Under the pieces are notes generated by a model, which saw only the letters and a list, made by a program, of their open reading frames with translations, made no database searches and was not told where the DNA came from. Below, piece after piece: positions 2,194 to 31,658 of a DNA stretch of 42,820 nucleotides. How positions within the stretch are numbered: the first letter of the stretch is position 1; every line of letters begins with the position of its first letter. Source of the DNA: Kiritimatiellia bacterium (GTDB taxonomy: Bacteria; Verrucomicrobiota; Kiritimatiellia; RFP12; UBA1067); assembly GCA_045132115.1 (NCBI GenBank), contig JBGURT010000111.1, forward strand, positions 1-42,820, written 5' to 3'. The translations under genes and the position numbers were made by a program.

Positions 2194-2217
2194 CTCTTCG
2201 GTTCCTTTCTTTCGCTT

Positions 2218-4244: not shown

Positions 4245-4280
4245 GATAATTTCGATTTTTCGGTATAAATTACTTTCTCC

Positions 4281-5439: not shown

Positions 5440-8400
5440 TTAGTGCGTGATCTCGATCTTGAAGAACTGGGCGTTGGTCGCCGCGGCCGGGAGCGGATAC
5501 TCGATAACGCCGCTGCTGGTGCCCACTTCAACCGTATCCTTGACCTCGGCCACGGTCCAGTCGGCATCGCCCAGATTCGCCTTGTAGAGAACCTTGACGT
5601 CGAACGAGACGGTTCCGCCTTCCACGACGTAGAACGCAGAAGCGGACGAACCGGCGGTCAATGTTTCGACTTCGCTCGTGTAGCCGATCTTGACGGATTT
5701 CGCCACAGTATCGATATCGAGCGAAGTGATGGCGATCACCGAAGAGTCGGCTATCGTCTCCGCGGCGGCCTTGGCCTCTTCGATCGTATCGTAGCCGAAC
5801 GTCAACGCGGCGATCTTGGGATTAGACAGCGTAGAGACGACCTGCGATGCCATCGCGACGGTGCTCGCTCCCGAGCCCGCGGCCGGGGCGGCGGCAAGCA
5901 GAACCGGAGCCATGCCGGAAGTCGCCGTTCCGGCGCCGCCGGCGGCGAGTGTAGCAAGATCCGTGCTGTAAATGAAGCCGATTCCCTCGCTGTCGGTCGT
6001 GATCGCATCGAGCGGCGTGTTCGTCCTCCAGCTTCCGTCCGCCTTCTGCGCGTCGCTCGCCTGAGCGTACTCGTAGGCGTCGGGCAGGCTGTTGCCGTTG
6101 GTGTCGGCGTCTTCGATGTAGATTTCGATCGAATCGCCTTCGCCGAGAACACCGGCGGAGTACTTGACTCCGGTCGGGTTGAACGGCACCGCGCCAATCA
6201 AGCCGCGGGCGCAGAGGTAGCCCATGGACTCCCAATCGTCGCACACGCCATTGTCGTTGGAGTCGATGAACGCGCGGAAGTAGTACGTTCCCGGCTCGAT
6301 ACCGACTATCGTGGCGTTGTCGGGCACCTCGCCGGCATCACCGAGCGTGGCGAGACCGGTCACATAGCCGGCCGCAACGGGTTCGCCGGTGAAGTCCGGC
6401 TTCGTGAACGCCTGCACCCGGATGGTGGCCGCATCAGCGGCGACCGGCCCGAAGTAGCGGACCTTCACGCCCTGGGTGCGCATCGCGATGTTGTTCTCGG
6501 CGACATTGAGGAGGAACTTGCCGCTGCCGCCATTTTCGTCGGTCTTGTACTTGGAGTTGTAGCCGTAGACCGTCCAGGTGTATTCCTTGTTGTTGGCGTA
6601 GACGCCATAGCCGTGTTCGCCGTCGATCTTGTCGCCCACGCAGATAGGCGCGGTCCAGACATATTCGCCCTCGGCATTCTCGAGCGGCATCTGCTGGAAG
6701 CCGGAGTTGTAGCTGAAGCCTTCTCCGGTCACGACGATCCTGAACGCGGTGTAGGTGCCGGCGCGCTTCGTCATCGTCCAGCGGAAAGTAGGCCGCGCGT
6801 CCGTGACGCGATAGCCCGCCTGCTCCGTGGGTTCGACCGCGACCGCCACCGAACGCATGCCTGCGGGATCGAAGGCCCTGATGAACGAATAGCGGGCGAC
6901 AGACACCGTATTGCTCAACGACGCCGTGGTGACCTTTTCGATATCCCCATTGCCGAACACTATGCGGTACACGACATCCCTGATATCGATATCGTCGCTG
7001 TTTTCGTCAACGATGCCTTCGGTATCGGCGGCGAGATCCCAGTCGATGTCGAACTTGCCGTTGCCCATGAACCAGCCCTCATGGATGAACTTGCCCAACT
7101 CGCCGGAGATATTGACAACACGATCGTCGACGACCTTGGTGGTGTCGTTGGCCGTGTAAGCCCTGCCGTTGTAGTAAGACCTGACGACCCTGACACGCAC
7201 GAATCTTCCAAAGCTGCCGGCTTCTTCGTAAGTGTCCTCGTCGAGGTTCTCGGACCACTTGCCCCAGGTGGCTTCGCGGTCGTTATCGCCGGTGACGAGG
7301 TCAGCGCGAACCGAGACGGGCGAGGTGCGGGTTAGCTGGATCGCGGCCGCGCCGCCCTTCCAGCCGATGTCCACGTCGCACGCGACACCCATAGGCTCGC
7401 CGGGCGTGTAGAGGCCGTCGCCGTCAGTATCGAGGATCGCGATAACCTGGCTCTTGCCTTCCTTGATCGCGCCCTTCGTCGCCTCGCCGAGATACACCGT
7501 GCGGGGCAGATCAGCAGACGGATTGACGTCATACACAACGCGGTAGGTATGCGCCTCCGCCGGCGTCTTCGCATTCGTGTCGCTGACCGACCAGATTGAC
7601 TTTCCGGCCAACGCGCCGAAGTCGAAGTCGTACTCGCCGGTGACGAGATTGATCGTGCCGAACTCGATGGTGAGCGCGTCGTTCATATACACCGTCGCGA
7701 TATCGCCATCGGTGCGGATAGACATTGTGGAGAGCGGATGATACTCGGAATCGGGCTTCACGATGTCTACCGTGTCTTTGCCGTAGTTGTAGTAATCCTC
7801 GAGATATTCGGCCTTGGTGCCGGTGCGGTAGACGTATTGCGTCTCGCCGTCGCTGTCGACATACGAGAGGCGCCAGCTGAACAGCGTGTTGTCCGGCGTA
7901 TAGGCATCTTCGATGACGATCGATTTCGCCTTGACGTTGCCGGGCGTGAGCGTGCCGACGGCGTGGCGGTTTTCCCACTTGCCGAGCACCTTGGCATACG
8001 CATTGGAAGTCGCCGCCGTCGAGGTGGAGTTGGTGCCGCCATCGACAATGAACTTCGCGTCGAATTCCGCGTTCGAACCGTTGCGCGTCACATAGACGAG
8101 CAGCTTGGAGTCTTCTACGTCGTGGATGTCGGCTTCGTTGTAGCTGACGGTGAGCGCAAGCGTGGGAACCGGGTGGTCGATTACCGTATCTTCCACCGTG
8201 TTCACATGCGACTTCCTGCTGCCGATTATCGGCTGGACCATCTGCGAATAGCGCGCCTCGCTCCTCATCGACCAGCCGTCGTCGTCAGCATCGGTGCCGG
8301 CGTCGTATTTGAGCCGTGTCGCGTAGTCGGACGCATACTGGTCTTCCCAGGAATCCTCGACTTGATCGTGGTCGGTGAAGATCTCGCCGACATACAGTTT

Positions 8401-11400
8401 GCCGATCTTGTAGAAGTAGTCGAGGCAATAGGTGTTGGCCGAATACGCATTGCGCGCGTCGAACTTCTTGCCGTCGACATCGAAGACTTCCGAGAGGAGG
8501 TATTCCGCATAGTTGGAGAGACCGTCGTTATCGTAGTCGTCCAGGCCATCGGAGCCCTTGATCATGTACCTGAGCGCAATCGCGTCGGAAATGCCGTCGT
8601 CGTCGGTATCGACCTGCCACGGATCGGTCGGATTGCTGCCGCGGTCGTATTCGTCGACCAGCGTAAGCTCGCCACCTACCGTCCTGGACTTGTCGCGAGC
8701 ATCCGCCGCGGTGATCCACGGCGAGATCTGCCAATCGGTCGTGGCCGTTCCTCTGGCCGCGCTTACGCCAGCCGGACCGAACATCGTGTAGAGTTCCCAG
8801 CCATCCGGGATGCCGTCGAGGTTGGTGTCGTTCGTTCCGGCCTTGAGAATGGCGGACGAAGCATCGGTCAGCCCGATCGCCGCGAAATACTTCTTCACGA
8901 GCGCCTTGTCAAGGTTGGTGAACTCCTTGGTGTTGACCGACGGATCCGCCACGGGATTGGCCGTGTTGGGATTGAATCCGTAGAGGTCGTAGACCTGGGC
9001 GTGCACAAACGCGATCGTGGCGTTATTCTCGACGCCGGTCACTCTCCACTTGGAGAGATCGCCGAACGCGGTCATATCGTCCGTACCGGCGCCCCAGACA
9101 AAGTCCGTATCGGTGCCGTATCTGTATACGGTCAGATACTTGCGCTCGACATCAAGCGTGTCGCCAGTTTCAAGGCCTTCGCCCGTCAACTCGGCCACAT
9201 AGCCGGTTTCTCCGGTCTCGTCATTTACCACCGTATACACATAGCCGCTCTGCTCGGCGTAAGCCATAACATCGCCAGCCACATACCTGCTAGCATCGGT
9301 CGGATCGGCAGGATCTGTACCCAAGTCAATTTCGTCGTCATCATTGATACCGTCATCGTCAGTATCGTCGTCGTTCGGATCGGCTCCATTATAGAAGTCT
9401 TCCTTGTAGTCATCATCCGTCGCCGCGGGATCGGAGTTGACAGAATACTTCACATAAAGCTCCCAGCCGTCCGGCAGGTCGTTGCCATTGGTATCGGTAT
9501 ACCAGCTCGTGAGATCGTATTCGGTTTCCGCACCAACGAGCGGCAGATACATCTTATCGGTGATATACTTGAGCCTCCTCGTGAACGCAACCGTATTGTT
9601 GCCGGCCGCGCTTGCCGCAACCTCGGAATCGTCTTCGCTGCCGGTGTCTTCGACAGCGGCTTCAATCGAATCGGGCACGAAGAATTTCGGCCTTGCCGTA
9701 GTCACGTCCCAACCGTACCAATCGTACACCGCCGAGTGGATGATCGTGGCCTCGGCCGTGATATAACTCTGGAACTCGCCCTGCGAGAGCGTTACCGTGG
9801 TGGGCACGCCAACGAAGAGTTCGTCGCCTACCATGAACGTCGTATAGAGATCTTGCGTCCCCGGTCTGACCGCGTAGGACGTCTTGGCGCCCGTTGTCTG
9901 GTCGGTGACGACCATAATCTGGACGTTGGTCTTCACATACGCGCACCAGTCTTCTTCGGTTACGCCGTTCCAGAACTCGTCAAGCTCCTCGACAGTCGCA
10001 CCGGCAATACCCATTGCCATCGCAAAAGCATTGTCGTATTCCGGAACTGCTTCAAGCGTTTCCGTGCCATACGCGCCCTCCGCAACCGCCTTCTTGTAGA
10101 GATAGTAGTCGTCGTACGGATCGTAGCCGCTCTTCACGGAATCCTGCGCCACCGCGTCGACGTAATCTATCGTCGCGTCAGCCTTCGAAGCCGCGTTCAC
10201 GTAGCGGATGTACAGCTCGTAGCCGTCCGCAACCTGATTGCCGTTCGAGTCCGTCACGTCCGCCCCAAGAGCCGCGTAGTCCGTTCCCGCACTCTCGTAG
10301 CTCGCAAGCGTGATCTTCTTCCAGATCATCGTGAACGGCACCGTGTTCGCTCCCTGGACGATCGTCGTCTCGGCGCCGTCCTCGCCCTCGGTCACCGTCG
10401 CGACGCCAGGCTTCGCCGTCGTCGGATCGAACCCGAAGAAGTCGTACACCGCAGAGTGGATCAACACCACGTCCGCCGCAACCCCTGTGTCATAAGCGTC
10501 TACCGTGTAGTCCTTCGTGCTCGAGCCTGTCACGATCAGCTGCCCGTTCACCTCCGTCGTCGTGTAGAGCACCTTGTTCGACGGATTGGCGACATACGTC
10601 ACGCCGCCGATGTCCACCGTGTGGAGTACGCCCTTCCAGTACGCCATAACGTCGTTCTCGGGCACCGCGAGCCAGTACGCCCTCAGCGTCTCTTCAGTGC
10701 CGTCCGCGTAGCCGCCGGCGACCGCCTCGGCGTTCTTGTACTCGGGCACCAGCGCAAGGTCGCCAACAAACAGACCCTCCGCAACCGCCTTCTTGTAGAG
10801 ATAGTAGTCGTCGTACGGATCGTAGGCAGCCTCGACGGTGTCGGCGAAACCTTGCTGAATGGTGGTCGTGTCGACCGGGAATGCCTTGGAAGTGTTGGCA
10901 GAGGCAAAGCCCATGTACAGCTCCCAGCCGTCGGGGAGTCCGTTGGCGTTGGAGTCGTAGAAGCCGGGCCTGTAAGTCGAAGCCGACCAAGTGCCGTTGG
11001 TATTCATCTCGACCTCGTTGGCAAGGCCGAACTCCTGGAGGTACTTCACGACGAGGTACTTGTCAAGCGCAGTGAACTCCTTGGTGTTCACGCCATACAC
11101 CGTATTCCCCTCGGACACAACGATTGCATTCGGATTGGCGGTGGTCGGGTCAAAGCCGAAGATATCGTAGACGCCACCATGAATCACGGTTACGGGGACT
11201 TCCTTCACGCTCGCAGCGACGATGCCTTCCGCGGGTGCACCCATTGCGAGCGCGCCGTTGTACATGAAGGTAGTGTAGTACTTGCCGGTTTCGCCGGGCT
11301 TGATGACATATTGCTTACCTTCAGCGGTCACGGCAACACTGAGGTTCGTGACGACATACGCCATCACGTCGCGCTCGCCAACATAGTCGGCGTCCCTGGT

Positions 11401-14400
11401 GAGCGGGTCGGTCTGGGCGAACTTGATTTCCCATCCGTCTGGCATGCCGTCGCCGTCGGAATCCCAGTTGTCGGCAATGGTGCCAAGCTCCGTTTCCTCG
11501 GCGTCCTTGAGACCATCGAGATCGGTGTCCTTGTCGGCGGCAGCGGCAGAGCCGGACTGCGTAGCGAAACAATCGAGTTCAAGGATGTCGGGGATTTCGT
11601 TCTGATTATAATCCGTATCCTCGATGAAGATCGCTATGGAGTTCGTCACGCTGAGGCTGTCGGGGACCTCCACCGCGCGCGGCGTATAGAGGAAGTCGGT
11701 CGCACGACCAATATTGTTGCCGTAACCCCAGGATTCCCAAGGCTCGAGCGTTCCATTGTTGTTGGAGTCGATAAACGCACGGAGGAACACCTTGCCAGCC
11801 TCGATACCGGCAATGGCAACATTGTTCGTTTCAATGCTGGACCTGACCTTGAGGTCTTCAACGGTCGAATCCATGCGGACACGAGCAAGCGGAAGTCCGG
11901 TGAAGTCTGCCGTGGCGAAGGCTTCAACAATGATGTTCGTCGGGTCGGCGATGCCAACCTCTCCGGGCCCGAAGTACCTGACGACTGCCGCCGCCTTGCC
12001 GTAACCCGTGGTAGTCTTGGGATGCGTGAGCGCATTCTCGACATCGATCGTGAACTCGCACCAATCGCTCCATGCAGAGTCGTCGATCGAAGCCCACTTC
12101 GCGTTCAAGAGCGCAACACGCCAATAGTAATTCGCGCCGTTCTTGAGAATTGTCGCGCCATTCGTCGGATTGGCGAAGCCTACATAGACGTCCGGCTGCA
12201 CGGCGAACGCCGACGGATCGCCGAGCGAAGCAGGCGTACGGCCAGGCAACATCTCGACCGGCGATTCCCAGACGGTATCAGATTCGTTCTTGCTGGTCGA
12301 AATCTGCAGCTTGTACGCCGTCATCGTCTGGTCTTCGGTGTTGAAGACGAACGTCGGGTGCGCCGAGTAGACGGGCGCGGTGTCAAGCGGAGATATCTGC
12401 TTGGCTATGGCGCGTGTCTGGTAGAACTCGCGGGTGAACGTATCCTTCACCTCGTCGTTCACGACTATCTCGTATGTCGCGGAGATGATCTCGTTCGTCG
12501 CGAGCCCCATCTTGACTGCATCCTTGACGAGCCATGCGAGGTCCAGATCGTATGCCGCCCCCGGGATGGCATCGGCCTCGGTGATGTAGGCGCGGTCGTC
12601 ATTCACGACCGTCTTCTTCATCACGATCCTGAGCGTGGACTTCTGGCCATTGATCTCCGTGCGGCGGACGACAACATCTGTCGTAAGTCCTTCCTCGACG
12701 GTCGCGGCATCAGTATTCTCCTCGTTGCCCGCACCTTCGTCACCGCTTGCGGTCGCGATGCGTTTGAAGACAGGCGAATCGTCCGTAAGTTCGATCACGA
12801 CGGGCTTGCCGGTCTTGTGCCAGCCGACTTCAACATCGCGCACATATCCGTAGGGTTCGCCGATGTCATAAGCGCCGTTTTCGTTAAGGTCTATAAACGC
12901 TTCTATAGTATTCTTGCCCTGACGCAAGAAACCGGAACCGCCGGCTACAGAAGCGTCGGAGAGCCAAAGCGTCTTAGGCCACCTGTCGGCAACATGATAA
13001 TAATATGTCGCGCGGATAACGTGATGGTCTAGATCCACTCCGGCATCAGTGATCGCGCCAAAGTCAAGTTCATATTCGCCGGTCGTGAAATCTATCTGAC
13101 CGACGACGGTCGCCGTCAAGTTTGAGGACGACAGATGAATCAACCCGTAATGGCCGTCGGCATCGCTCGACGTTTGCGCGAATATATCGTAAGTCTGCGA
13201 TACGGACACCACCTTTTCGGCCTCAATACCGTGCGCCGCCACATGCGCAAGATACTGCGAATATGTTCCTATGAATCTGAATCCGCCAGAAACCAACCTT
13301 TCAACAAAACTTTCATCGCCTACATGATTAGACAGTGCGCAATCCCAAATATATCGCGGCTCAGCATCAATGCGACGAGACTGGAACTTGATATCGCTAC
13401 CGGGAATGATATGGCCAGGATGCAGAATCCCGTGCGCCGTTGCTCCATTGACAAACGTGCCGAGCATGTGTGTCGCCTGCATGTCATCGTCGCTATTGGA
13501 TCCCTTGACAACAAATGTCGCGTCAACACGCTTCTTGTTCGCCGTGCTCGTTCTGACGACGAGAGAGGCGCCATTGATATCCTGCACGCCATAATACGTC
13601 GCCCTTACGCCGATTGCGGGCATAGGATGCGCCTCGTAATGATTGCTGCCGGTGCCGGCGTAATAGCCGTCGACAGCACTCGCGTTCATCCCGCCGTGCC
13701 AAGCGTAGGAGCGCGCTTCGGCGAAGTTGTCCCAGCTGTCTCCGTCCGTATCAAGGTGTGGATCGTACACATTCGGATTCGCATACGAGAGACCATACAA
13801 CACTTCCCACCAGGACTCCATGGAGTCATGGTCGCCAACCATCTCGCCAAGATACTCGGACTCGCGAACATGCTCTGCGTCAACAGCGGAAGACACAGGC
13901 GGCGCAAGGAAGTAATCCACTACAGCATCGCCCTTGGACCGCGCCTTGAGCGGATCGAATGCATAATCAACAACGCTGCGCAGATAGTAGCCATAAGGAG
14001 ACGGTCCGTAGCTGATCAACCATTCCTGATAATTCGTGAGGCCGTCATGGTCGGGGTCGTCGGTTGGCGCACAATCCTCCACGCCATAATATCTCTCCCA
14101 CCAATCGGGTATGCCATTCAGGTTGGCATCGACAGTAGAGACGTATGCCGGATTCGTAGTTCCGTCTGGCATCAAGCCCATCGAAAGCCAGAACGCATAC
14201 TTCTCGGGATCGCTGTAGTCTGGTCTCGCCCAATCAGGGGTGCCTGTATCTCCAGCGTCTCCGTCGAGCGCACCATCCTTCGTCGTAATCGCCCAGGCGT
14301 CTTCCGGACCTTGTCCATCCCAGTAATCGGCTTGGCGCTTGGCGAACGCCGAGCCGACGGGGACGAGATCGGAGTTTTCCCTGAACGAACGCAGATACCT

Positions 14401-17400: not shown

Positions 17401-20400
17401 ACCGTCGTATTCTTCATTTTCAAAATCCCCGTCCATCGGGATCTCGGCACCGCGGAAGAGCAAGCCGGCGAACTGGCGTTCCCACGGGTCGGGCAGACCG
17501 TCGAGGTCGGTATCGATCGTGCAGGGGTTGTAGCCGCCACCCCTGATGCAACGCGAACTATAGTTGGTGGGATTGCCGTAGATGGAGTAGTGCTTGACCG
17601 AGGCGGTTCTCAGCTGGGTTGATCCCCAGCGGTTGAATGTATAAACGCCATTCCATGCAGCACCTTCGAGGCCGTCCTTGATAAGGTCGCCGTCGGTATC
17701 GGGATTGCGCGGGTCGGTCGGGAAGAACTTGTTGAACCAGCCCCTGATCATGCTGCCCTTATTGCCTGGGAAATTCGCGTAAATTGAGGGGCAAGCTTCA
17801 TAATCGCCGCAAGTATCGTTACCCGCGTATTCGCCCACGAGCGTAAGTCCGTCTTCGTAATCTGCATTTTCGCCAATCGCCGGCCAAATGCCGTTGCCGT
17901 CCCAATAGCGCACGTCACGGCCGTCGCCACGGATCGTGAAGTCAATGTTCGGGTTCACGCCAATGTAGAGTTCCCAGCCGTCCGGCACGCCATCGCCATC
18001 GGTATCGGCACCATGCTGACGCTGTGCGAAAACGGTAGTGTCAGATCCCCATTTCAAATCTGCAAACGCGGCGTTCGGATTGGTGGTGCCGCCCTGGACA
18101 ATACCATAGATTGTGATCTTGTTGTCCTTGAGTTTCTGCTTATCATCCTTGATATCCCTCACTCCGGTGATATAGCGGTACTTGAGGAGCAGATATTCGT
18201 CGAGGGCCGTGAATTGGGCGGTATTCTGCGGCAAACCGGCTCTGTATATACCCTGACCAATCCAGCGACCGGTCGAACTGAGCGTGCCGTTTTCGCCAAC
18301 GTACCAACCGGTGCGGGGATCGAAACCAAAGTAGTTGTGCACCTGATGGTGGTAGAGCGAGACGGTGTTGGTCGCGATTCCGCTCGCCACGACCGCATCA
18401 AACTCTCTGGCGGCAACATTGCCGCTGCGGTTAATGAAGTCGGCAGTATCCTCGGTAGGCAATATCCAGCCATCCTTGAACTTGAACACCTGGAAGCCAT
18501 CGCCAGCCACTTTCACTGTATTGGTCGTGGGATCGATCCAAGCAGCCTCCACAAAGGTCGCCTCCTCGCTGTTCGAGAGCATCCAGTACGTTCCGTCGCT
18601 CGCTTCGTATACATACGTGTACGGCGCGAAGTCGGGCAGCTTGAGATTCTCCGGGTCGGCAAAAGAACCGTCGGCCTTATGCGAATCGTGCACAAACGCC
18701 ATGAAGTCGCCGTCAAGATTCATAGCACCGTTTTGGTACTGGCCGCCCGAAAGCGGATTTACGTTGTAGATTACCTCATAGAGATCGCTCAAGCCGTCAC
18801 CATCCGAATCCCAATGCACCGGGCTCGTGCCGATAAGGAACTCCTCGAGGTCGTAGATGCCGTCGTTATCGGTATCCTGATGGGTCCAGGTGCGGTTGAT
18901 ATTCGGGTTGTAGATGCCCGCAATGGTTTCGGGCGTGATAATGTCCTCGCGGCTTTCGATGTCATCCAAATTGAACTTGTAGCCGGTGAGACGGTTTTTG
19001 CCTTCCGTACCCACCACGGCGTCGTACCAGATGAAGTATTCGTAGCCGTCGGGCATGCCGTCGCCATCGGTATCGTCGATCATCGGGTCGGTGCGGTTTT
19101 CGCACGTCCAGCCCCAGGTTCCGGCTTCTGCATAGTGGCGCCATGTAAGGTCGATAAAGTGCTTGGCGGCCTGCTGCTGCCGGCCTGTGAGACCTGCTAC
19201 GAGCAAATTCCCATCAAGCCATTCGCCAAAGTTGATATCGTCGAGCGTGATGGTGTCGGCCGGGTTCATGTCGCCGAGTTCCGTGATCGCATGGGTCACA
19301 GTATTGCTCTTCGAATAGAGCGACGACGCACCCCTGAGGATATTTGTGACGAAGGCGCCTTCAGGCGTACCATCATCATAATGCACAATCCACCGGTTAA
19401 CCGTGATGCCAGGGTAGTTTTCATCCTCTACGTCACACTCCCAATGCGCGTCCTGATCGTACACGTAGCACGTTTGAATCACAGGGTTCATGGCAGTAGA
19501 GCCGCTACGGATTACCGAGGCGAGGATATTCGTGACCGCAATCCAGTCAGTGCCGTCGTATGTGCCTGCACGACCTGTGTAGCGACGATTCAAGATATTG
19601 TCGCGAGTCTCAAGGACGAGGCGCATCAAAGAGCGCTTTTCGTTATCGGTAAGCGAGAGAGTGGAAATCCATCCCGCCTCGCTCTCGCTCCTCGCCATGG
19701 CTCCGGTATGGTACGCGCGGAACATGCCATAGTTCAGACCGTCGCCGAGACCGCGGATTTCCCTGAAGGCGGTAAAGGCCTGACCGGCCGTCGCCCAACT
19801 GTTGGAGGAGCCGGGCACGATCGTCGAACGCCCAAGTTGCGAAGTGGAGGGCAGGAAGTCATTGTCGTCGTTTCTGGCGTTTACCGCGCCAAGTTCGCCG
19901 CCCGCGCCGTCGGTCTTGGCGAGCGTCGCATTGTTCGCATAAGTCTTGATTGCAAAGATATCCGGAATACCGTCGTGATCGATATCGCCCATATTGTCGA
20001 ACTGGTCATATTCGGCCGAGAATATGGCCTCGATAAAGGTGGGCACATAACCGTTGCCGTCATCGGTCTTTGCCGTAGGCAGAATGAAGTCTGCCACTTC
20101 CGCGGTGTTGGTACCGATTACCGGCGCGACGCGGATAGAATAGTCCGATCCGCCCGGTTCGGAAGCACTTATCCAGCCGTAGAAGAAGCTGTCGTACATG
20201 GACTTGTATTCGTACGGATCGCTAATCACGGTCGTGGAAGATTCCCTGCTGCCGGATTTGTCTATCGCCCAGTCTCTCTTGCGGTCAAGGTTTCCATCGT
20301 CCTTGGCGCCAGACTGATACCCGAACGCATAGAGGCTGACGGAATTGAGCGTGCCGCAGTTCCAGGTGATATTGAAGCTTTCGGCCGACGCCGGCAACAC

Positions 20401-23400
20401 TCCCTTGCCGCTTACGTAGACATGGCCCTTGCCGATACCTTCCTGGCTGGCGTAAAGCCGGGAAAGTTCATTGTTCGAGTTGCCGCCGGACGGACCAGTC
20501 GCTCTCGTTTTTACTTCCTTGGCGTCCGCCACCTTGAAGTACCAAGTACGCTCGAAGCTACCGATGCCGGAGTCCTTGTCCTTGTCGGCGACCGTGACGC
20601 GAACACGCTTCGTGCCCGGGGACGTGAAGGCGGGCGTAAAGGTTTTGCTGTCGGTGTCGGTGCAGGTTTGAGTATCAGCCGATCCGTCATCGCTCTTCCA
20701 GGTTACGGTCACACCGGCGTCAAGGTCTGCCGCAATATCGTCAATCGAGAATTCGATTGGCTCGCCGGCGCCAATCGCCGCCGCGAACGCATTCGATTCC
20801 GTATTTTCCTCGCCCAGCGAAGTAATCAGCACCGGCTCTACGTTCTGGACGGTGATGACGGTGGGGGTTGAGGTATAGAAATCGCTCCACGGAATGGTCG
20901 GAGCATGCGCAATAGTTGCATTGCCTTCAGTGATAACACTCGGGCTGATCTTCCAGCCCTTGGTGGAGGAGAGCTTGGTGCCGTCGAGCGTATCCAGATA
21001 GAAATTCGCCGTCTTGACGCCAGCAGGAATCGTGGCAACATAATATGCGATAGACGCAGGATCGGTCGTAATGGCGCCGAGCGAATCGTATGCATCGATG
21101 CCGCCCAGGATCAGGACACCCTTCTTGGCGTCAGCGGTACCCGCAGGTGCAAGGGAATCGACCACGATTTTCACCTTCTGTTCTTGAGCGTACGCTTCAG
21201 ACAGGACGATGGACATGCGCGAAGCGTTCTGCCCGACGCTCGTTTCGGCGTAATCCGTAAACCCGCTTTCGGTCGTGATCGAGACCGAAGGACTGTCGTT
21301 CACGACAAGCTTGCAGACGAACTTCTGGCCATAAGCCTTCATGTCCTTGTCTTTGGCCTGGAATGTCAAGGTCACCGTTCCCGGGGCATTGAACGTGTAC
21401 TTTATTTCGTTGGCCGCGTCGTTCGGGTTGCCGTATATTTCATCGTTGTCCGTAACCGCACCGCTGAATTCCCACTTGAGCGCGAACCGCTCATCCTTGT
21501 CCGTGGTGTCAGCATCGTCTGTCGCATCAATATCCTTGGTTACGTCATCGACCATCACCTGGAAGGTCTGCTCGATTCCCTTGGCGACAGACACCTCGAA
21601 AGTTCCGCCGGAAACTTCAACCGCGTTGCCGCCGTTTATCGTAACGCCGGTGATCGCAGGTTCCACATTTTTGGAATACAGCTTCAAAGTCTTGCTCTGA
21701 TAGCCGGTTACAATATTATTCTCGTCGTAATCCTCGGAAGTGCAAAGGACGACCTCATACTGGCAGAGAGTGCCCACGCCCATGCCGCCATCCGGGAATT
21801 CAATATAGCCCGGCTCGGATTCATACTCGCCAGATTCAATCCGCAATCCCTGCGTAGCCGCAGAAGTCGTAACCGGATAACCGGCTGAGGCTTTCTTGGT
21901 TTCATCATTCTTGGGCTTGAGGAATGCGTAAACCGTCTTATTGTAAGACTTGGTCAAAGTTACCTTGACGGGAATCGTGGCTTCGTCCGATTCATCGAAT
22001 GTCGCGCTGGTCACATAGCTGGCGCCACCGTCCGTGCTGACATAAGCCTGCATCGTCGCGGGCTCGGAGATGGATACGGAGACCTGCGCCTCGTTGCTGA
22101 CCACATCGCCGACGGGGGTTTTGACGCGGAAGGTCGTAATGTATTCTCCGGAAGCATAAAGGAGCGACGGGAGTTTGGTCGGGTCTGCCTTGCTTGCCAA
22201 AACCCCCGAAGAATTGAGCACCCAAACGTCAGCGTCTCCGGCGACAAGCGTCTCCCAATCGTTGGCTTCTTCCGTAAGCTTGTATTCGATCGTATAGCCG
22301 GTGGCGGTGTCGGTAACATTCTTGTAGTTGTCGGCGATCGTGAACGAGAAAGTACGCTCGACATTGCCGACGCCCTTGACGCTAGAAGCGGTCGTGAGCA
22401 CCGGAGCCGACGGGACGAGCTTCGCCACATGATGCGAGGGGGTGTAGTAGGTCGCGGCGGCCGCGGGGGAATCGACGGTAACTTTGAAGCGCACGCCGTT
22501 GCCGGTAGTGCTCGTATATTTGTCGGCGCCAAGACCGAAGACATAGATGTTCTTCGTGAGGGAGGTCGTACCGGCCGGGAACGTGAATTGCACCGTATCC
22601 ACATTCAAATAGCTGCCAGCCTCGTTGTCTTTGGCGATATGCACATAATCATAGATATTCAGGCCGGTCGTAGCCGTCGTATTCTGGAACTCCGGCGTCA
22701 CGGTGACGGTGACATCTTCCGTGTAGGCCTCGCTCATCGTGAGCGTCAAGGTGCCGATCGAGCTTTCGTAGTCAGTCCCGACCGTCATGGGGTCTGCGCC
22801 GGTGAGCGTAATTCTGGGCGTGAGCTTCTCGCCCACGACCATCTGTTCCGTCAAGTAGTCTTCTATCAGCAGCGAACCACTGTCGCGCGTCTGGAAACCC
22901 TTGTATTCGCTCAAATAGATGGTGGCCACCTGGCCCTCGGTACCTGCGGCCTGAACCTTGAAGGTATAAGACGATTGTCCCGAAGTAAGCTTGATGGTGC
23001 CGACACTGGCCGTAATCGTGCTTGCGAGATTGACAGGGTTGGCCATCTCAACCGCATCGTCGCCAGCAGCAACCATGACGTCATTTCCGGAAATGATCTT
23101 GATCGCGGCATCGTTATCCGACCAAATATAGAGTTTGGAGGATACGGACGGCGAACCGGTCACTTCAATCGTGAGCGTAGAGTCGCTTGTCGTGGAGTTT
23201 TCATGCACGAGAGCCCAATAGGTATTGCCGCCATAGGTCGTGCTCTGATTGGCAAAGTCCACAGTCTTGACGAGGAACTGGCTCAGGTACATGTCGTAGT
23301 TGCTCGTGCGCGACGGGAACCATTGATCTTGAGCTCCAGTAGTATCTGAAGCAAACATCAGCTGGGCCTCGACCGATTCATCTGCAGTAGAAACGATTTT

Positions 23401-23937
23401 CCATCCCTGCGAGGTGGAGGAATCGTAACCGTTTACAAAATAAATCGCATCGCCACCGTCGACAGGCTCGCCGGCGCCATTCTTGGCAAGGCGGACCGGG
23501 AGAGCGATATCGCCTTCTTTTACGGTATACTTGCAGATGATGTCGGTATAATAAGTATAGCCGGCAGAACCAGGACGAATATCAACGATTTGAGCGCTTT
23601 CGGTCCTTCCGTTTACGACTATGCCTATGCCGGCAGGTCTTGCGGCAACCGCGGTGCTCTCGCTGTAAATCCCAGTAGCATCATACCACTTCCACTTCCA
23701 GTAGGTGGTCGAATTGATGCGATTTACCGCAAAGTCGGGGTTCAAAAGACGCACCGCAAAATAGAACGTCTCGCCGCCGACGAGCGCCTCGGCTTGCGAC
23801 GTAACATAAGGTTCAGCCCCCGCGGTCTGCGTCTCATTATCCCAGGCGCGGATTTCATAGATCGAAGGGATAGTCGTCGCCGATGCGATTCCCGCGAACG
23901 CCGCCGCCAATACCGAGGTAAGGAATTTCATTTTCAT
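5440..23937 (-). CDS. Giant secreted multidomain protein, 6,165 aa, function unknown. It contains PKD-like, TSP3-like DxDxDG and LamG-like elements plus repeated novel modules.
   Basis: The ORF is uninterrupted for 18.5 kb. An SD (AGGAAAA) lies 6 nt before the ATG, and the product starts with a signal peptide (MKMKFLTSVLAAAFAGIASA/TT). The composition is rich in T, D, G, Y and N, with no internal TM segment. Recognisable motif classes are listed as sub-features below. Confidence 0.9.
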   Translation of the reverse strand: MKMKFLTSVLAAAFAGIASATTIPSIYEIRAWDNETQTAGAEPYVTSQAEALVGGETFYFAVRLLNPDFAVNRINSTTYWKWKWYDATGIYSESTAVAARPAGIGIVVNGRTESAQIVDIRPGSAGYTYYTDIICKYTVKEGDIALPVRLAKNGAGEPVDGGDAIYFVNGYDSSTSQGWKIVSTADESVEAQLMFASDTTGAQDQWFPSRTSNYDMYLSQFLVKTVDFANQSTTYGGNTYWALVHENSTTSDSTLTIEVTGSPSVSSKLYIWSDNDAAIKIISGNDVMVAAGDDAVEMANPVNLASTITASVGTIKLTSGQSSYTFKVQAAGTEGQVATIYLSEYKGFQTRDSGSLLIEDYLTEQMVVGEKLTPRITLTGADPMTVGTDYESSIGTLTLTMSEAYTEDVTVTVTPEFQNTTATTGLNIYDYVHIAKDNEAGSYLNVDTVQFTFPAGTTSLTKNIYVFGLGADKYTSTTGNGVRFKVTVDSPAAAATYYTPSHHVAKLVPSAPVLTTASSVKGVGNVERTFSFTIADNYKNVTDTATGYTIEYKLTEEANDWETLVAGDADVWVLNSSGVLASKADPTKLPSLLYASGEYITTFRVKTPVGDVVSNEAQVSVSISEPATMQAYVSTDGGASYVTSATFDESDEATIPVKVTLTKSYNKTVYAFLKPKNDETKKASAGYPVTTSAATQGLRIESGEYESEPGYIEFPDGGMGVGTLCQYEVVLCTSEDYDENNIVTGYQSKTLKLYSKNVEPAITGVTINGGNAVEVSGGTFEVSVAKGIEQTFQVMVDDVTKDIDATDDADTTDKDERFALKWEFSGAVTDNDEIYGNPNDAANEIKYTFNAPGTVTLTFQAKDKDMKAYGQKFVCKLVVNDSPSVSITTESGFTDYAETSVGQNASRMSIVLSEAYAQEQKVKIVVDSLAPAGTADAKKGVLILGGIDAYDSLGAITTDPASIAYYVATIPAGVKTANFYLDTLDGTKLSSTKGWKISPSVITEGNATIAHAPTIPWSDFYTSTPTVITVQNVEPVLITSLGEENTESNAFAAAIGAGEPIEFSIDDIAADLDAGVTVTWKSDDGSADTQTCTDTDSKTFTPAFTSPGTKRVRVTVADKDKDSGIGSFERTWYFKVADAKEVKTRATGPSGGNSNNELSRLYASQEGIGKGHVYVSGKGVLPASAESFNITWNCGTLNSVSLYAFGYQSGAKDDGNLDRKRDWAIDKSGSRESSTTVISDPYEYKSMYDSFFYGWISASEPGGSDYSIRVAPVIGTNTAEVADFILPTAKTDDGNGYVPTFIEAIFSAEYDQFDNMGDIDHDGIPDIFAIKTYANNATLAKTDGAGGELGAVNARNDDNDFLPSTSQLGRSTIVPGSSNSWATAGQAFTAFREIRGLGDGLNYGMFRAYHTGAMARSESEAGWISTLSLTDNEKRSLMRLVLETRDNILNRRYTGRAGTYDGTDWIAVTNILASVIRSGSTAMNPVIQTCYVYDQDAHWECDVEDENYPGITVNRWIVHYDDGTPEGAFVTNILRGASSLYSKSNTVTHAITELGDMNPADTITLDDINFGEWLDGNLLVAGLTGRQQQAAKHFIDLTWRHYAEAGTWGWTCENRTDPMIDDTDGDGMPDGYEYFIWYDAVVGTEGKNRLTGYKFNLDDIESREDIITPETIAGIYNPNINRTWTHQDTDNDGIYDLEEFLIGTSPVHWDSDGDGLSDLYEVIYNVNPLSGGQYQNGAMNLDGDFMAFVHDSHKADGSFADPENLKLPDFAPYTYVYEASDGTYWMLSNSEEATFVEAAWIDPTTNTVKVAGDGFQVFKFKDGWILPTEDTADFINRSGNVAAREFDAVVASGIATNTVSLYHHQVHNYFGFDPRTGWYVGENGTLSSTGRWIGQGIYRAGLPQNTAQFTALDEYLLLKYRYITGVRDIKDDKQKLKDNKITIYGIVQGGTTNPNAAFADLKWGSDTTVFAQRQHGADTDGDGVPDGWELYIGVNPNIDFTIRGDGRDVRYWDGNGIWPAIGENADYEDGLTLVGEYAGNDTCGDYEACPSIYANFPGNKGSMIRGWFNKFFPTDPRNPDTDGDLIKDGLEGAAWNGVYTFNRWGSTQLRTASVKHYSIYGNPTNYSSRCIRGGGYNPCTIDTDLDGLPDPWERQFAGLLFRGAEIPMDGDFENEEYDGTYRVFEVSVPNETFYDDIRAEITAVMGSNLDDWEGVYHVMMGMDGTVADAHSGTYIGAEDVDWDGDGLQNWQEYMVQAMRQFRYDDDKTPLIGSDSPLVSLIGGSGSGSGTITLPRYTVTPGAWCAEGEDGNNRFLKMSYTWPYTKAQLEYVRDELGYKNFADWALECIDNGVDYLGQLGYFADPPKTWDHARIDYDNKYMLPREAVQVYTRYTYSYTSHEWATDEDGNAIFSYPGGGLFTNNVSGTVKETSSGGYSAMIDGKSKKLTRVSTDVDHVEKRLSSLNHETSKVGGVPLYYGTDPRLWDTDDDGMDDYYELFHGLNPILGEVSMSSGTVSSKDVIGRACRLVTPWNNAWTGWDDSAEPGYDPIKFPWMMGVAACDADGDGIRNYEECLLANVTSPGATHTDPTPLWMTDSTVDTISEYIYTSEEEVDEDGEPVWDSNDDGATWFTVTNKVVNYDEDRVEFVTKPSYTALYYGNDISANSKSHYVNGERIATSFPVNMYASDGGWGSGAYDYIASFEENEGYDTDNDWRSDSIEQSGGVEGVEGTSDPQNFADPSRRQSIWFGGPEKPGLAMTVTPNKRHAHGIDLFKQFTVEAWVRPENASAAGDKYVVTRAVNYQGWDLINSNNVVRLNFAIGIDAEGRAFGEMQDSTEVFCRVEGTELVDNKWAHIAATFDGTTLTIYVNGVKCSSTETTLIPANGVEDIKLDPQHLMGEAAEYKAMYAATVIGGRPTDKDIFYAGSNPGQEEIAELATDFLKGSVAEVRIWDGARTASQVESTYKTRFTPEFAAAQRLEVFEAYYNGARRNDQTASRILPAELLHHYDFTTLPGATDAAYVQKVPAGFAANVLAVVRRPDTGETVDDLVEIGWWAKLADSPLASEVYNSRHVVPWIEDTMAHLPRLDGTVKDSVYWSENYAGYTPATDHYGIDQYAFNNTMDPYGNVTYAGQSGTWSYEDEYLWNKFARINNQTNAAINATTAGLTSTLTNDTVFTRFMYRYLRSFRENSDLVPVGSAFAKRQADYWDGQGPEDAWAITTKDGALDGDAGDTGTPDWARPDYSDPEKYAFWLSMGLMPDGTTNPAYVSTVDANLNGIPDWWERYYGVEDCAPTDDPDHDGLTNYQEWLISYGPSPYGYYLRSVVDYAFDPLKARSKGDAVVDYFLAPPVSSAVDAEHVRESEYLGEMVGDHDSMESWWEVLYGLSYANPNVYDPHLDTDGDSWDNFAEARSYAWHGGMNASAVDGYYAGTGSNHYEAHPMPAIGVRATYYGVQDINGASLVVRTSTANKKRVDATFVVKGSNSDDDMQATHMLGTFVNGATAHGILHPGHIIPGSDIKFQSRRIDAEPRYIWDCALSNHVGDESFVERLVSGGFRFIGTYSQYLAHVAAHGIEAEKVVSVSQTYDIFAQTSSDADGHYGLIHLSSSNLTATVVGQIDFTTGEYELDFGAITDAGVDLDHHVIRATYYYHVADRWPKTLWLSDASVAGGSGFLRQGKNTIEAFIDLNENGAYDIGEPYGYVRDVEVGWHKTGKPVVIELTDDSPVFKRIATASGDEGAGNEENTDAATVEEGLTTDVVVRRTEINGQKSTLRIVMKKTVVNDDRAYITEADAIPGAAYDLDLAWLVKDAVKMGLATNEIISATYEIVVNDEVKDTFTREFYQTRAIAKQISPLDTAPVYSAHPTFVFNTEDQTMTAYKLQISTSKNESDTVWESPVEMLPGRTPASLGDPSAFAVQPDVYVGFANPTNGATILKNGANYYWRVALLNAKWASIDDSAWSDWCEFTIDVENALTHPKTTTGYGKAAAVVRYFGPGEVGIADPTNIIVEAFATADFTGLPLARVRMDSTVEDLKVRSSIETNNVAIAGIEAGKVFLRAFIDSNNNGTLEPWESWGYGNNIGRATDFLYTPRAVEVPDSLSVTNSIAIFIEDTDYNQNEIPDILELDCFATQSGSAAAADKDTDLDGLKDAEETELGTIADNWDSDGDGMPDGWEIKFAQTDPLTRDADYVGERDVMAYVVTNLSVAVTAEGKQYVIKPGETGKYYTTFMYNGALAMGAPAEGIVAASVKEVPVTVIHGGVYDIFGFDPTTANPNAIVVSEGNTVYGVNTKEFTALDKYLVVKYLQEFGLANEVEMNTNGTWSASTYRPGFYDSNANGLPDGWELYMGFASANTSKAFPVDTTTIQQGFADTVEAAYDPYDDYYLYKKAVAEGLFVGDLALVPEYKNAEAVAGGYADGTEETLRAYWLAVPENDVMAYWKGVLHTVDIGGVTYVANPSNKVLYTTTEVNGQLIVTGSSTKDYTVDAYDTGVAADVVLIHSAVYDFFGFDPTTAKPGVATVTEGEDGAETTIVQGANTVPFTMIWKKITLASYESAGTDYAALGADVTDSNGNQVADGYELYIRYVNAASKADATIDYVDAVAQDSVKSGYDPYDDYYLYKKAVAEGAYGTETLEAVPEYDNAFAMAMGIAGATVEELDEFWNGVTEEDWCAYVKTNVQIMVVTDQTTGAKTSYAVRPGTQDLYTTFMVGDELFVGVPTTVTLSQGEFQSYITAEATIIHSAVYDWYGWDVTTARPKFFVPDSIEAAVEDTGSEDDSEVAASAAGNNTVAFTRRLKYITDKMYLPLVGAETEYDLTSWYTDTNGNDLPDGWELYVKYSVNSDPAATDDDYKEDFYNGADPNDDDTDDDGINDDDEIDLGTDPADPTDASRYVAGDVMAYAEQSGYVYTVVNDETGETGYVAELTGEGLETGDTLDVERKYLTVYRYGTDTDFVWGAGTDDMTAFGDLSKWRVTGVENNATIAFVHAQVYDLYGFNPNTANPVADPSVNTKEFTNLDKALVKKYFAAIGLTDASSAILKAGTNDTNLDGIPDGWELYTMFGPAGVSAARGTATTDWQISPWITAADARDKSRTVGGELTLVDEYDRGSNPTDPWQVDTDDDGISDAIALRYMIKGSDGLDDYDNDGLSNYAEYLLSEVFDVDGKKFDARNAYSANTYCLDYFYKIGKLYVGEIFTDHDQVEDSWEDQYASDYATRLKYDAGTDADDDGWSMRSEARYSQMVQPIIGSRKSHVNTVEDTVIDHPVPTLALTVSYNEADIHDVEDSKLLVYVTRNGSNAEFDAKFIVDGGTNSTSTAATSNAYAKVLGKWENRHAVGTLTPGNVKAKSIVIEDAYTPDNTLFSWRLSYVDSDGETQYVYRTGTKAEYLEDYYNYGKDTVDIVKPDSEYHPLSTMSIRTDGDIATVYMNDALTIEFGTINLVTGEYDFDFGALAGKSIWSVSDTNAKTPAEAHTYRVVYDVNPSADLPRTVYLGEATKGAIKEGKSQVIAILDTDGDGLYTPGEPMGVACDVDIGWKGGAAAIQLTRTSPVSVRADLVTGDNDREATWGKWSENLDEDTYEEAGSFGRFVRVRVVRSYYNGRAYTANDTTKVVDDRVVNISGELGKFIHEGWFMGNGKFDIDWDLAADTEGIVDENSDDIDIRDVVYRIVFGNGDIEKVTTASLSNTVSVARYSFIRAFDPAGMRSVAVAVEPTEQAGYRVTDARPTFRWTMTKRAGTYTAFRIVVTGEGFSYNSGFQQMPLENAEGEYVWTAPICVGDKIDGEHGYGVYANNKEYTWTVYGYNSKYKTDENGGSGKFLLNVAENNIAMRTQGVKVRYFGPVAADAATIRVQAFTKPDFTGEPVAAGYVTGLATLGDAGEVPDNATIVGIEPGTYYFRAFIDSNDNGVCDDWESMGYLCARGLIGAVPFNPTGVKYSAGVLGEGDSIEIYIEDADTNGNSLPDAYEYAQASDAQKADGSWRTNTPLDAITTDSEGIGFIYSTDLATLAAGGAGTATSGMAPVLLAAAPAAGSGASTVAMASQVVSTLSNPKIAALTFGYDTIEEAKAAAETIADSSVIAITSLDIDTVAKSVKIGYTSEVETLTAGSSASAFYVVEGGTVSFDVKVLYKANLGDADWTVAEVKDTVEVGTSSGVIEYPLPAAATNAQFFKIEITH
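6065..8295 (-). repeat. Super-repeat B (~743 aa) of the giant protein, paralogous to 11575..13760
   Basis: It carries, in the same order as super-repeat A, the landmarks DADDDGWSMRSEARYS, HPVPTLALTVSY, IAILDTDGDGLYTPGEPMGVACDVDIGW, RPTFRW, VKVRYFGP, RAFIDSNDNGVCDDWESMGY and IYIEDADTNGNSLPD. Confidence 0.6.
10076..10126 (-). repeat. 51-nt perfect direct repeat, copy 1 (encodes YDPYDDYYLYKKAVAEG)
   Basis: I aligned ccctccgcaaccgccttcttgtagagatagtagtcgtcgtacggatcgtag base by base against 10775..10825. The two copies are identical, and the flanking bases differ. Confidence 0.95.
10775..10825 (-). repeat. 51-nt perfect direct repeat, copy 2 (offset 699 nt, in frame, 233 codons)
   Basis: The string is the same as at 10076..10126. 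Confidence 0.95.
11575..13760 (-). repeat. Super-repeat A (~730 aa) of the giant protein, paralogous to 6065..8295
   Basis: It shares an ordered set of landmarks with super-repeat B. These are D.DGDSW..FAEARSY, P.P..(G/A)(V/L).(A/V).Y, EAFIDLNENGAYDIGEPYGYVRDVEVGW, a P(T)F.(F/W) Fn3-like block, VRYFGP and RAFIDSNNNGTLEPWESWGY, ending in IFIEDTDYNQNEIPD. Bounds are approximate. Confidence 0.6.
15030..15650 (-). other. LamG / concanavalin-A-like jelly-roll domain (about aa 2765-2970 of the giant protein)
   Basis: The segment FTVEAWVRPENASAAGDKYVVTRAV ... NKWAHIAATFDGTTLTIYVNGV ... GSVAEVRIWDGARTASQVE follows the typical Laminin_G_3 pattern (FT.E.WV ... W.H.A.T.DG..L.LYVDG ... DEVRIW..ARS). Confidence 0.6.
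15781..19080 (-). other. Region dense in thrombospondin-type-3-like calcium-binding motifs (DxDxDGxxDxxE)
   Basis: Examples are DDTDGDGMPDGYEY (19041-19080), DTDNDGIYDLEE and DSDGDGLSDLYE (about 18770-18890), and DTDGDGVPDGWELY (about 17950-18010). Others are DTDGDLIKDGLE, DTDLDGLPDPWE, DWDGDGLQNWQEY, DTDDDGMDDYYE, DADGDGIRNYEE and DTDNDWRSD (15781-15822). Confidence 0.65.
20525..21560 (-). other. Two PKD-like Ig-fold domains inside the giant protein (approximate bounds)
   Basis: The segments YTFNAPGTVTLTFQAKDKDMKAYG (about 21300-21400) and FTSPGTKRVRVTVADKDKDSGIGS (about 20540-20640) match the PKD pattern Y.F..PG.Y.V.L.V.D..G. Confidence 0.45.
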
Positions 23938-23949
23938 GGTGCTTTTCCT

Positions 23950-31529: not shown

Positions 31530-31542
31530 ACTACTGTCAGAT

Positions 31543-31651: not shown

Positions 31652-31658
31652 GTTATGG

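Follow-up and report, generated by a model that had tools for sequence, protein, structure and literature searches.

A giant gene beside ackA-pta in a Kiritimatiellia bacterium encodes a member of an unnamed, modular protein family that may form surface fibrils

Results

Gene content of the locus

We analyzed a DNA stretch of 42,820 nt from a Kiritimatiellia bacterium (Verrucomicrobiota; RFP12; UBA1067; GenBank assembly GCA_045132115.1, contig JBGURT010000111.1, positions 1 to 42,820 of the forward strand), which is referred to as the window. The gene under study is a giant open reading frame (ORF) on the minus strand; its product is called the giant below. In minus-strand order the window contains alaS, a major facilitator superfamily transporter gene, galK, the gene of an acidic secreted protein, a SurA-like chaperone gene, def, a gap of ~0.8 kb, the gene of a 2,396-amino acid (aa) protein, a lipoprotein gene, the giant gene, ackA, and pta. 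Beyond pta follow a gene with SIS and CBS domains (KpsF-like), an Amuc_1102-like ORF, and pilM. Positions are listed in Table 1.

Table 1 Features of the giant gene and its surroundings, in window coordinates.
Feature	Position	Strand	Remarks
Giant ORF	5440-23937	−	6,165 aa (codons); 672 kDa; pI 4.3; ATG start
Shine-Dalgarno sequence AAGGA	23946-23950	−	8 nt 5' of the giant's ATG (23937-23935); shares bases with the TAA of the lipoprotein gene
Sec-type signal peptide	23878-23937	−	aa 1-20; cleavage between ASA and TT, by inspection
N-terminal region	20548-23877	−	aa 21-1130; unclassified outside the PKD-like parts
PKD domain	20578-20772	−	aa 1056-1120; Pfam
Second PKD-like domain	21328-21579	−	aa ~787-870; hhalign probability 96.7%
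U1	19138-20547	−	aa 1131-1600; conserved, unannotated; beta-sandwich at aa ~1131-1330 modelled with moderate confidence
TSP3-repeat region	16948-19137	−	aa 1601-2330; four TSP3_bac stretches, 49.7 bits
U2	15838-16947	−	aa 2331-2700; two DxDxDG loops
LamG/concanavalin-A-like lectin domain	15058-15720	−	aa ~2740-2960; LamG_3 at aa 2772-2878
U3	14167-14967	−	aa 2991-3257; unannotated
Super-repeat A	11473-14166	−	aa 3258-4155; self-BLAST
Four tandem modules of ~210-240 aa	8647-11382	−	aa 4186-5097; each ends D(S/T)NxNxxxDGWELY, Ca-loop-like
Super-repeat B	5944-8646	−	aa 5098-5998; ~140-aa Ca-loop/helical segment, then a string of beta-sandwiches
Disordered linker with short helices	5746-5943	−	aa 5999-6064; rich in Ala, Gly, and Ser
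Family-specific C-terminal beta-sandwich	5443-5745	−	aa 6065-6165; ends FFKIEITH
Recombinant central cassette	9328-18690	−	aa ~1750-4870; ~3,100 aa, includes LamG
51-nt perfect direct repeat, copy 1	10775-10825	−	699 nt (233 aa) from copy 2
51-nt perfect direct repeat, copy 2	10076-10126	−	encodes YDPYDDYYLYKKAVAEG
Secreted partner protein	24339-31529	−	2,396 aa; 262 kDa; pI 4.6
Helical lipoprotein	23950-24342	−	130 aa; lipobox WTGC
ackA	4281-5417	−	directly downstream; 22 nt from giant stop to ackA ATG
pta	3207-4244	−	downstream of ackA
Sigma-70-like promoter match	31543-31571	−	TTGACT-17-TATCAT with TG; upstream of the block; weak
pilM	1-1449	−	PF11104, E 3e-39; runs off the left window edge
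238-aa ORF	1477-2193	−	sub-threshold Amuc_1102 pilus-like match, 23.6 vs. cut-off of 55 bits

Coding evidence for the giant gene

An earlier note on this DNA had described an uninterrupted 18,498-nt frame of 6,165 aa with a good Shine-Dalgarno sequence, an ATG start and a signal peptide, and had regarded it as a real gene that could not have arisen by chance. The ORF list of the window and our own translation agree on this frame, in which the only stop codon is the terminal one. AAGGA and ATG are in place, and the N-terminus (MKMKFLTSVLAAAFAGIASA, followed by TT) has by inspection the n-region, h-region, and AXA layout of a Sec signal peptide. Equivalent leaders are kept in the orthologues, where the mature N-terminus contains a conserved strand of the GDIxxI type. 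Aspartate makes up 9.1% of the acidic giant, and a motif and transmembrane (TM) scan of all 6,165 aa found neither a TM segment nor a TM-like window. Given that the base composition predicts ~3.6% stop codons, 6,165 codons without a stop would arise by chance with a probability of ~1e-99. Codon bias does permit long antisense frames. Three such shadow ORFs lie on the plus strand opposite the giant gene (7738-13032, 1,764 aa; 13135-16875, 1,246 aa; 18013-20871, 952 aa) and are best explained as by-products of its codon usage, which is rich in G and C at third codon positions (GC3), and not as genes. No other ORF of the window is comparable to the giant in length.

Further evidence pointed in the same direction. 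In-frame GC3 was 0.66-0.83 in all 1.5-kb blocks of the gene, and its relative synonymous codon usage correlated with that of seven housekeeping neighbours (r = 0.93, vs. −0.13 for a shifted frame). The closest relative is a locus of the metagenome-assembled genome (MAG) UBA3783 (referred to as L002), whose AckA and Pta are 94% and 97% identical to those of the window. In comparison with L002, the ratio of nonsynonymous to synonymous divergence (omega) was 0.25-0.29 for the first 1,600 and the last 1,300 aa of the giant, and the synonymous divergence (dS) of these flanks (0.47-0.66) matched that of pta (0.54) and of the upstream gene (0.65). In a genome scan, many species-level MAGs proved to have a collinear, uninterrupted counterpart of 4,023-6,360 aa. 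Near-identical full-length proteins of other family members occur in independent assemblies (for example, 6,416 aa in two; 5,325, 5,329, and 5,329 aa in three), and a ~3,470-aa relative is located on a 1.97-Mb MAG contig whose isolate name contains "LR", which we took to stand for long-read; no record gives the sequencing method. With the conserved synteny described below, these data identify the giant ORF as a functional gene under purifying selection.

The note had further placed the giant at the extreme upper end of bacterial protein sizes, which was overstated. UniProtKB contains >41,000 proteins above 5,000 aa, among which the phyla of the Planctomycetes-Verrucomicrobia-Chlamydiae (PVC) superphylum are enriched (PMC11573180), curated bacterial protein predictions reach 85,804 aa (bioRxiv 10.1101/2023.11.21.568195), and the giant's own family extends to 7,774 aa. 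Given how common giant genes are among PVC bacteria, where most of them encode surface proteins (PMC5177795, PMC11573180), the size of the giant alone is unremarkable.

Domain architecture

The whole giant was scanned with Pfam and NCBIfam at E ≤ 0.01, and ten segments of it were scanned with Pfam at a relaxed E ≤ 1. Both collections together recognize ~4% of the protein, consisting of PKD, TSP3 repeats, and LamG, in line with the remark in the earlier note that large parts match nothing. The relaxed scan of the ten segments found nothing beyond PKD and TSP3, and PDB searches with single sequences of both halves of the giant gave no match.

The block order that the note had read by eye was recovered objectively in all its parts by Pfam, self-BLAST, family-wide block mapping, and a motif scan, with a reservation for the N-terminus. 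Of the ~1,100 aa proposed there as Ig/PKD-like, two PKD-type domains were confirmed and a third is possible at aa ~525-615 according to profile-profile comparison, whereas the first ~500 aa are unclassified. The following region, described as studded with DxDxDG motifs around a LamG-like domain, indeed carries part of the 16 DxDxDxxxD/NxxE motifs that lie between aa 1622 and 5134. TSP3_bac (PF18884) exceeds its gathering score here (49.7 vs. 25 bits), as does LamG_3 (PF13385; 65.4 vs. 27.6 bits, E 8e-18), a candidate adhesive domain. The LamG profile of the family matches the LamG-like module of pappalysin (2.7e-6) and an S-layer-domain protein. Within the TSP3 region, self-BLAST also revealed one copy of the ~230-aa module type (aa ~1847-2000). 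The segment best conserved in the BLAST comparison is aa 2476-2597 in U2, with 50-54% identity in the two loci L012 and L024, and the invariant columns of alignment A1 begin at aa ~3190, near the end of U3, and continue over the opening ~150 aa of super-repeat A.

Self-BLAST also delimited the two super-repeats and the four modules between them as the note had proposed. Super-repeats A and B share 27-41% identity. From the DSSP trace, super-repeat B comprises roughly six to eight beta-sandwich domains, the last of which (aa ~5820-5950) aligns with DUF2141-bearing homologues; the giant itself has no DUF2141 match.

The stretch aa 5098-6165 was modelled with AlphaFold from an alignment of 23 sequences (predicted local distance difference test, pLDDT, 75; predicted TM-score, pTM, 0.74). 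The model showed, in this order, a ~140-aa loop and helix segment with Ca-type motifs, a string of beta-sandwiches, a disordered linker with short helices, and a ~100-aa C-terminal beta-sandwich. Each super-repeat starts with DxDxDG loops followed by helices, and profile matches of this start to EF-hand/lanmodulin-type sequences were non-significant (E 0.3). Foldseek matches of the model were complement C4 and C5, CD109, Gram-positive pilins, SiiE, MpIBP, and an S-layer protein, all of multi-Ig/fibronectin type III (FN3) character. A thioester/macroglobulin reading of the top matches was discarded, as there is no C[GLA]EQ motif and the TM-scores are 0.06-0.13. The motif scan of the giant found no HExxH either.

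An unnamed family with variable length

An exhaustive search with a profile of the C-terminal domain yielded 206 clusters at E ≤ 1e-3, with a score of 91.7 bits for the giant. The domain ends GF[FY]KVxV and is located at the extreme C-terminus in nearly all members listed; among the ORFs of the window and of 90 loci, a hidden Markov model (HMM) detected it in the giants alone. We also considered whether the domain is a general PVC sorting tag that occurs in the neighbouring M6 protease ending FLRLKI as well, and rejected this at the sensitivity of the HMM, which matched only giant-family ORFs.

The family comprises at least 57 full-length clusters (56 besides the window's own) of 3,964-7,774 aa. 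All 57 members have a constant N-terminal core of ~3,100 aa, which consists of the N-terminal region, U1, TSP3, U2, LamG, and U3. The core is followed by one to four copies of the ~900-aa super-repeat interleaved with ~230-aa modules and then by the C-terminal domain. Members of ~4.0-4.4k aa contain one super-repeat, those of 5.0-5.6k aa two, those of 6.2-6.6k aa two or three, and those of 7.3-7.8k aa three or four, so protein length tracks super-repeat copy number across the family. The giant of the window combines two super-repeats with an unusually long run of four modules, and two metagenome loci encode family members of >7,600 aa. By its own C-terminal domain and collinear block order the giant belongs to a family of Kiritimatiellae giant proteins for which the sources searched give no functional name, but only "hypothetical protein" or, in distant relatives, a generic domain label. 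The family stems largely from gut and rumen metagenomes, and all relatives found are MAGs. A literature search combining Kiritimatiellae with giant proteins or LamG found nothing relevant.

A mosaic central cassette

The giant gene is a mosaic. Identity to L002 is 72-77% for aa 1-1600, falls to 38-51% for aa ~1800-4200, and rises again to 75-84% for aa 5000-6165, while aa 4200-4800 are absent from L002. Segment-wise ranking placed L002 nearest in the outer blocks (72-80%, with 33-48% for the next best relative); for aa 2001-4500 L002 ranked only 2nd to 17th, and lineages with no more than ~25-38% identity at the N-terminus did as well or better. Central dS against L002 was 1.02-1.21, then saturated or not computable, compared with 0.47-0.66 in the flanks. 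The raised dS indicates a different genealogy of the center and not simply faster protein evolution. The breakpoints map close to aa 1730-1770 and aa 4850-4900, and the same identity pattern recurs on an independent contig of the L002 lineage from a metagenome. These sequence comparisons show that the central cassette has been exchanged by recombination. Outside the cassette, too, the giant is less conserved than its neighbours, with flanks that are 72-84% identical to L002 vs. 97% for Pta and 94% for AckA.

Genomic neighbourhood

The 2,396-aa protein gave no match in Pfam, NCBIfam, or PDB. In at least 10 genomes its gene immediately precedes the lipoprotein and giant genes. Full-length homologues are 39-42% identical, and relatives of 3,000-3,650 aa carry LamG_3, DUF2341, or glycine-rich (PF21722) domains. 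A lamin-tail-domain-like motif was seen by eye in the C-terminal third of the protein (WAWINEVNA...QYIEVAI...IEGWHL). The 2,396-aa protein was also considered as a paralogue of the giant and rejected (best BLASTP E 0.15).

The lipoprotein gene is translationally coupled on both sides: its ATG overlaps the TGA of the upstream gene (ATGA), and the giant's ATG follows 12 nt after its end. The lipoprotein was found beside the giant by tblastn in 7 genome loci, and a positionally equivalent lipoprotein-like ORF of ~180 aa is present in 3 distant loci; among the neighbour genes it was recovered next to the giant across the widest range of relatives. Its profile gave nothing credible in PDB and Pfam, where no relatives of known function were detected. 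On the other side, ackA lies directly downstream of the giant in 16 species-level genomes and on 7 metagenome contigs. A consensus-level and thus weak scan found no minus-strand terminator match between the giant gene and ackA. Rfam and tRNA scans of the window were empty.

The interval between def and the 2,396-aa gene (31530-32368) contains only one sizeable minus-strand ORF (31588-32097), an Arg/Pro-rich low-complexity frame that looks spurious. The sigma-70-like match sits at its 3' end. Elsewhere in the window, an unannotated minus-strand gene at 34985-36151 encodes a secreted protein whose N- and C-terminal tails are extremely acidic and which weakly matches a FecR domain (E 0.003), and another unannotated one at 40627-41997 encodes a 456-aa protein with an EF-hand-like loop (DTDHDGRIRIGE) and C-terminal TM helices.

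More distant Kiritimatiellae lack the large partner and keep the lipoprotein ahead of the giant. In four such loci (L015, L017, L019, and L032) a protein of 1,450-1,580 aa follows the giant; it matches M6 metalloprotease in L019 only and contains MAM and He_PIG domains in L019 and L032. At its C-terminal end, the L019 protein has a TSP3 motif and a beta-domain whose last residues are FLRLKI. A sigma-54 activator is encoded divergently upstream in L015, L017, and L019, with an FHA domain confirmed by Pfam in L019 only. These distant loci hint at regulated expression and proteolytic processing.

The PilM and Amuc_1102-like pair ~3 kb downstream of the giant resembles the pilus/secretin-type cluster Amuc_1098-1102 of Akkermansia. 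Any link between this pair and export of the giant would be pure speculation.

Comparison with known export systems and giant surface proteins

Signatures of known export and anchoring routes were sought. The giant contains no RTX (repeats-in-toxin) nonapeptide (0 GG.G.D matches in 6,165 aa), and no gene of the window matches a component of the type I secretion system (T1SS). Neither a C-terminal beta-barrel nor a two-partner secretion (TPS) model of type V secretion (T5SS) was matched at the thresholds given above. The C-terminal 130 aa have no NCBIfam or Pfam match to a type IX secretion system (T9SS) sorting domain; in the model, the ~100-aa beta-sandwich after the linker is analogous to such a domain in form only. 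No motif or TM-like window in the giant indicates LPXTG, PEP-CTERM, or another C-terminal tripartite sorting signal. CglD (NCBIfam NF033765) was matched only partially, by aa 1614-1719 of the TSP3 region, with 23.7 bits vs. a cut-off of 400. TSP3-type Ca2+ repeats are common to the giant and this gliding-motility adhesin of Myxococcus, but the giant has no VWA domain and is not a lipoprotein.

SprB of Flavobacterium johnsoniae is a cell-surface repeat protein of ~6,500 aa and 670 kDa that is encoded in an operon with accessory genes, has a dedicated C-terminal domain, and serves gliding motility as a T9SS cargo. No homology of the giant to SprB turned up, although no dedicated test was made; there is no T9SS here, and motility is not implied. 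In eukaryotic thrombospondins, a LamG-like domain is combined with Ca2+-binding type-3 DxDxDG repeats, which have little secondary structure, and with a C-terminal beta-sandwich. Their overlap with the giant is limited to the TSP3 motif and the LamG fold; domain order, size, and organism differ.

With giant RTX adhesins such as LapA, MpIBP, and SiiE the giant shares a length of thousands of residues, acidity, arrays of Ig-like beta-sandwiches, and variable repeat number; these adhesins are also Ca2+-dependent and carry lectin-type ligand-binding modules, as predicted for the giant. Unlike them, it has a Sec leader, Ca2+ motifs of TSP3 and not RTX type, other terminal domains, and no T1SS genes nearby. 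The fibrillar adhesins of Monzon, Lafita and Bateman (PMC8286594) are likewise long multidomain surface proteins with a repeated stalk, a candidate binding domain, and rapid evolution. The giant has the tandem stalk of this class (super-repeats, modules, and a modelled beta-sandwich string). It differs in that it has no recognised anchor, its stalk and head are mostly built from unannotated domains that are not in the published lists, and its gene is core and syntenic instead of patchy. The giant genes described from Planctomycetes and other PVC bacteria (PMC5177795; PMC11573180) come from the same superphylum, which is enriched in proteins of >5,000 aa, and encode Ig-like, lectin, and Ca2+-binding domains. 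The giant differs from them in its own C-terminal domain and block order and in its three-gene context, and its function is undescribed there.

Discussion

A candidate surface fibril

We consider it reasonably probable that the giant is a Sec-exported, Ca2+-stiffened surface fibril or adhesin of variable length in gut and rumen Kiritimatiellae. Its extracellular character is suggested by the signal peptide, the lack of TM segments, the pI of 4.3, the 16 TSP3-like motifs, and LamG_3 (65 bits) with its profile matches. The string of beta-sandwiches in the model, together with one to four super-repeat copies among family members, suggests stalk-like repeats, and an exposed, fast-evolving surface is indicated by the low conservation of the flanks relative to Pta and AckA and by the incongruent genealogy and raised dS of the cassette. 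The conserved partner genes also count in favour. According to Reva and Tummler, as cited in PMC5177795, the products of >90% of giant genes in bacteria are surface proteins or polyketide synthases/non-ribosomal peptide synthetases. In such a fibril, the super-repeats would form a stalk that sets the length, and the conserved core with LamG may act as a distal ligand-binding head that probably binds glycans. Ca2+ would rigidify the TSP3 segments, the C-terminal domain could attach the giant to the envelope or to its operon partners, and exchange of the cassette may diversify the exposed binding or antigenic surface.

Several points weigh against a surface fibril. We infer localisation, Ca2+ binding, ligand, and export route, and the distal end is assigned by analogy alone. 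Pfam, NCBIfam, and motif scans of the giant found no recognised anchor or outer-membrane export signature. All Foldseek TM-scores are ≤0.28, so the structural resemblance is generic. The model of core aa 1131-2330 is poor (pLDDT 48.8, mostly coil, no fold match); such a coil-like model may be expected of Ca2+-dependent TSP3 repeats and proves nothing. The giant sequence of the window is a singleton in the protein collection, which leaves the count of tandem modules without independent verification. Finally, a fixed chromosomal position and presence in many species would be expected of a core envelope component more than of an accessory adhesin.

Alternative explanations

This last point leads to the main rival, which we regard as rather unlikely. 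The giant could be a core envelope scaffold, either an S-layer-like or glycocalyx coat or an envelope-spanning structure, which would be assembled jointly with the 2,396-aa protein and anchored through the lipoprotein. Such a role would fit the conserved site beside ackA-pta, and the 22-nt spacing to ackA without a terminator match suggests co-transcription with housekeeping genes. Many S-layer proteins are, like the giant, acidic with numerous Ca2+ motifs, and both the LamG profile and Foldseek found S-layer matches. However, a 672-kDa monomer would be very costly for a lattice subunit, and very high expression is not suggested by the GC3 of the giant gene (0.72), which is below the values of its housekeeping neighbours (0.78-0.85). 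A 900-aa unit that varies in copy number and a cassette that is exchanged suit a projecting fibre better than a lattice, and Pfam found no SLH or other known S-layer anchoring domain.

It is improbable that the giant is a cellulosome-like polysaccharide-binding scaffold, whose Ca2+-dependent DxDxDG and helix segments would be dockerin-like and recruit enzymes or partners for the degradation of fibre or mucin. The origin of the family largely from gut and rumen metagenomes, the lectin-like LamG domain, the DxDxDG loops and helices that open each super-repeat with their EF-hand/lanmodulin-type matches, and the M6 metalloprotease with MAM and He_PIG adjoining the giant in distant loci are consistent with this role. 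On the other hand, those EF-hand-type matches are non-significant, Dockerin and Cohesin were not matched in Pfam even at E ≤ 1, and genes for carbohydrate-active enzymes are absent from the block.

We assign a slightly lower chance again to the possibility that the length of 6,165 aa is partly an assembly artefact, with chimeric or mis-counted tandem modules within an otherwise real gene. Besides the singleton status of the sequence, three of the four modules are missing from the closest relative, and same-strain support is limited to a 3-kb Logan contig (L001; read set SRR25030099), found by look-up of the lipoprotein, which reproduces only the 5' end of the giant locus at 100% identity. Exact look-ups of pta and ackA for a same-strain assembly gave no match, and a metagenome scan for the same strain recovered only the L002-like lineage. 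The DNA of the giant's repeats is too diverged to collapse, with the sole exception of the perfect 51-nt repeat, whose copies encode YDPYDDYYLYKKAVAEG at the equivalent position of two adjacent modules within essentially unrelated flanking DNA. This repeat is either a micro gene-conversion tract or the single site of a possible mis-assembly of the module count. Outside of it, the modules have no DNA-level identity that could cause collapse or chimerism; frame, codon usage, and module register are unbroken, and the module region is joined on both sides to collinear blocks that are supported by orthologues. Other family members contain two to three modules and two to four super-repeats, and some of them are reproduced in independent assemblies.

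A diverged RTX/T1SS, autotransporter, or T9SS giant adhesin, which size, acidity, Ca2+ motifs, Ig-like arrays reminiscent of LapA, MpIBP, and SiiE, and the SiiE and MpIBP fragments listed by Foldseek might suggest, is largely refuted by zero GGxGxD motifs, the cleavable Sec leader, the lack of T1SS genes in the window, and the lack of a beta-barrel, TPS, or T9SS C-terminal domain match.

Implications for Kiritimatiellae

Beyond the fibril or adhesin reading of the giant itself, we tentatively put forward a wider and more doubtful idea. Together, the giant, the 2,396-aa protein, and the lipoprotein might constitute a surface apparatus that occurs widely in Kiritimatiellae and has so far gone unrecognised. 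For attachment or sorting, such an apparatus would rely on a C-terminal domain of its own, and its export across the outer membrane would follow a novel Sec-dependent route. The number of 900-aa units would determine how far it reaches, and homologous recombination would exchange its ~3,100-aa ligand-binding LamG cassette among species. If this is true, the swapped cassette could diversify binding specificity or evade recognition by phages or hosts.

Kiritimatiellae are recurrent in rumen and gut metagenomes. As all relatives found are MAGs, little is known about how these organisms make contact with substrates or hosts. The three secreted or envelope genes of the block occupy ~26 kb (8,691 codons) at one chromosomal position across many species, which makes the block a prime candidate for encoding the main surface structure of these bacteria. 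What is new here is a protein family without a functional name, together with the terminal domain that is particular to it, the three-gene context in which it is conserved, and a modular variation in length combined with an exchangeable cassette of 3,100 aa. With one to four 900-aa extenders and an exchangeable lectin-bearing cassette, the family offers a natural experiment on how the length of giant proteins is set and how they diversify, and it points to a route for the export and anchoring of proteins of >600 kDa in diderm PVC bacteria outside the known systems.

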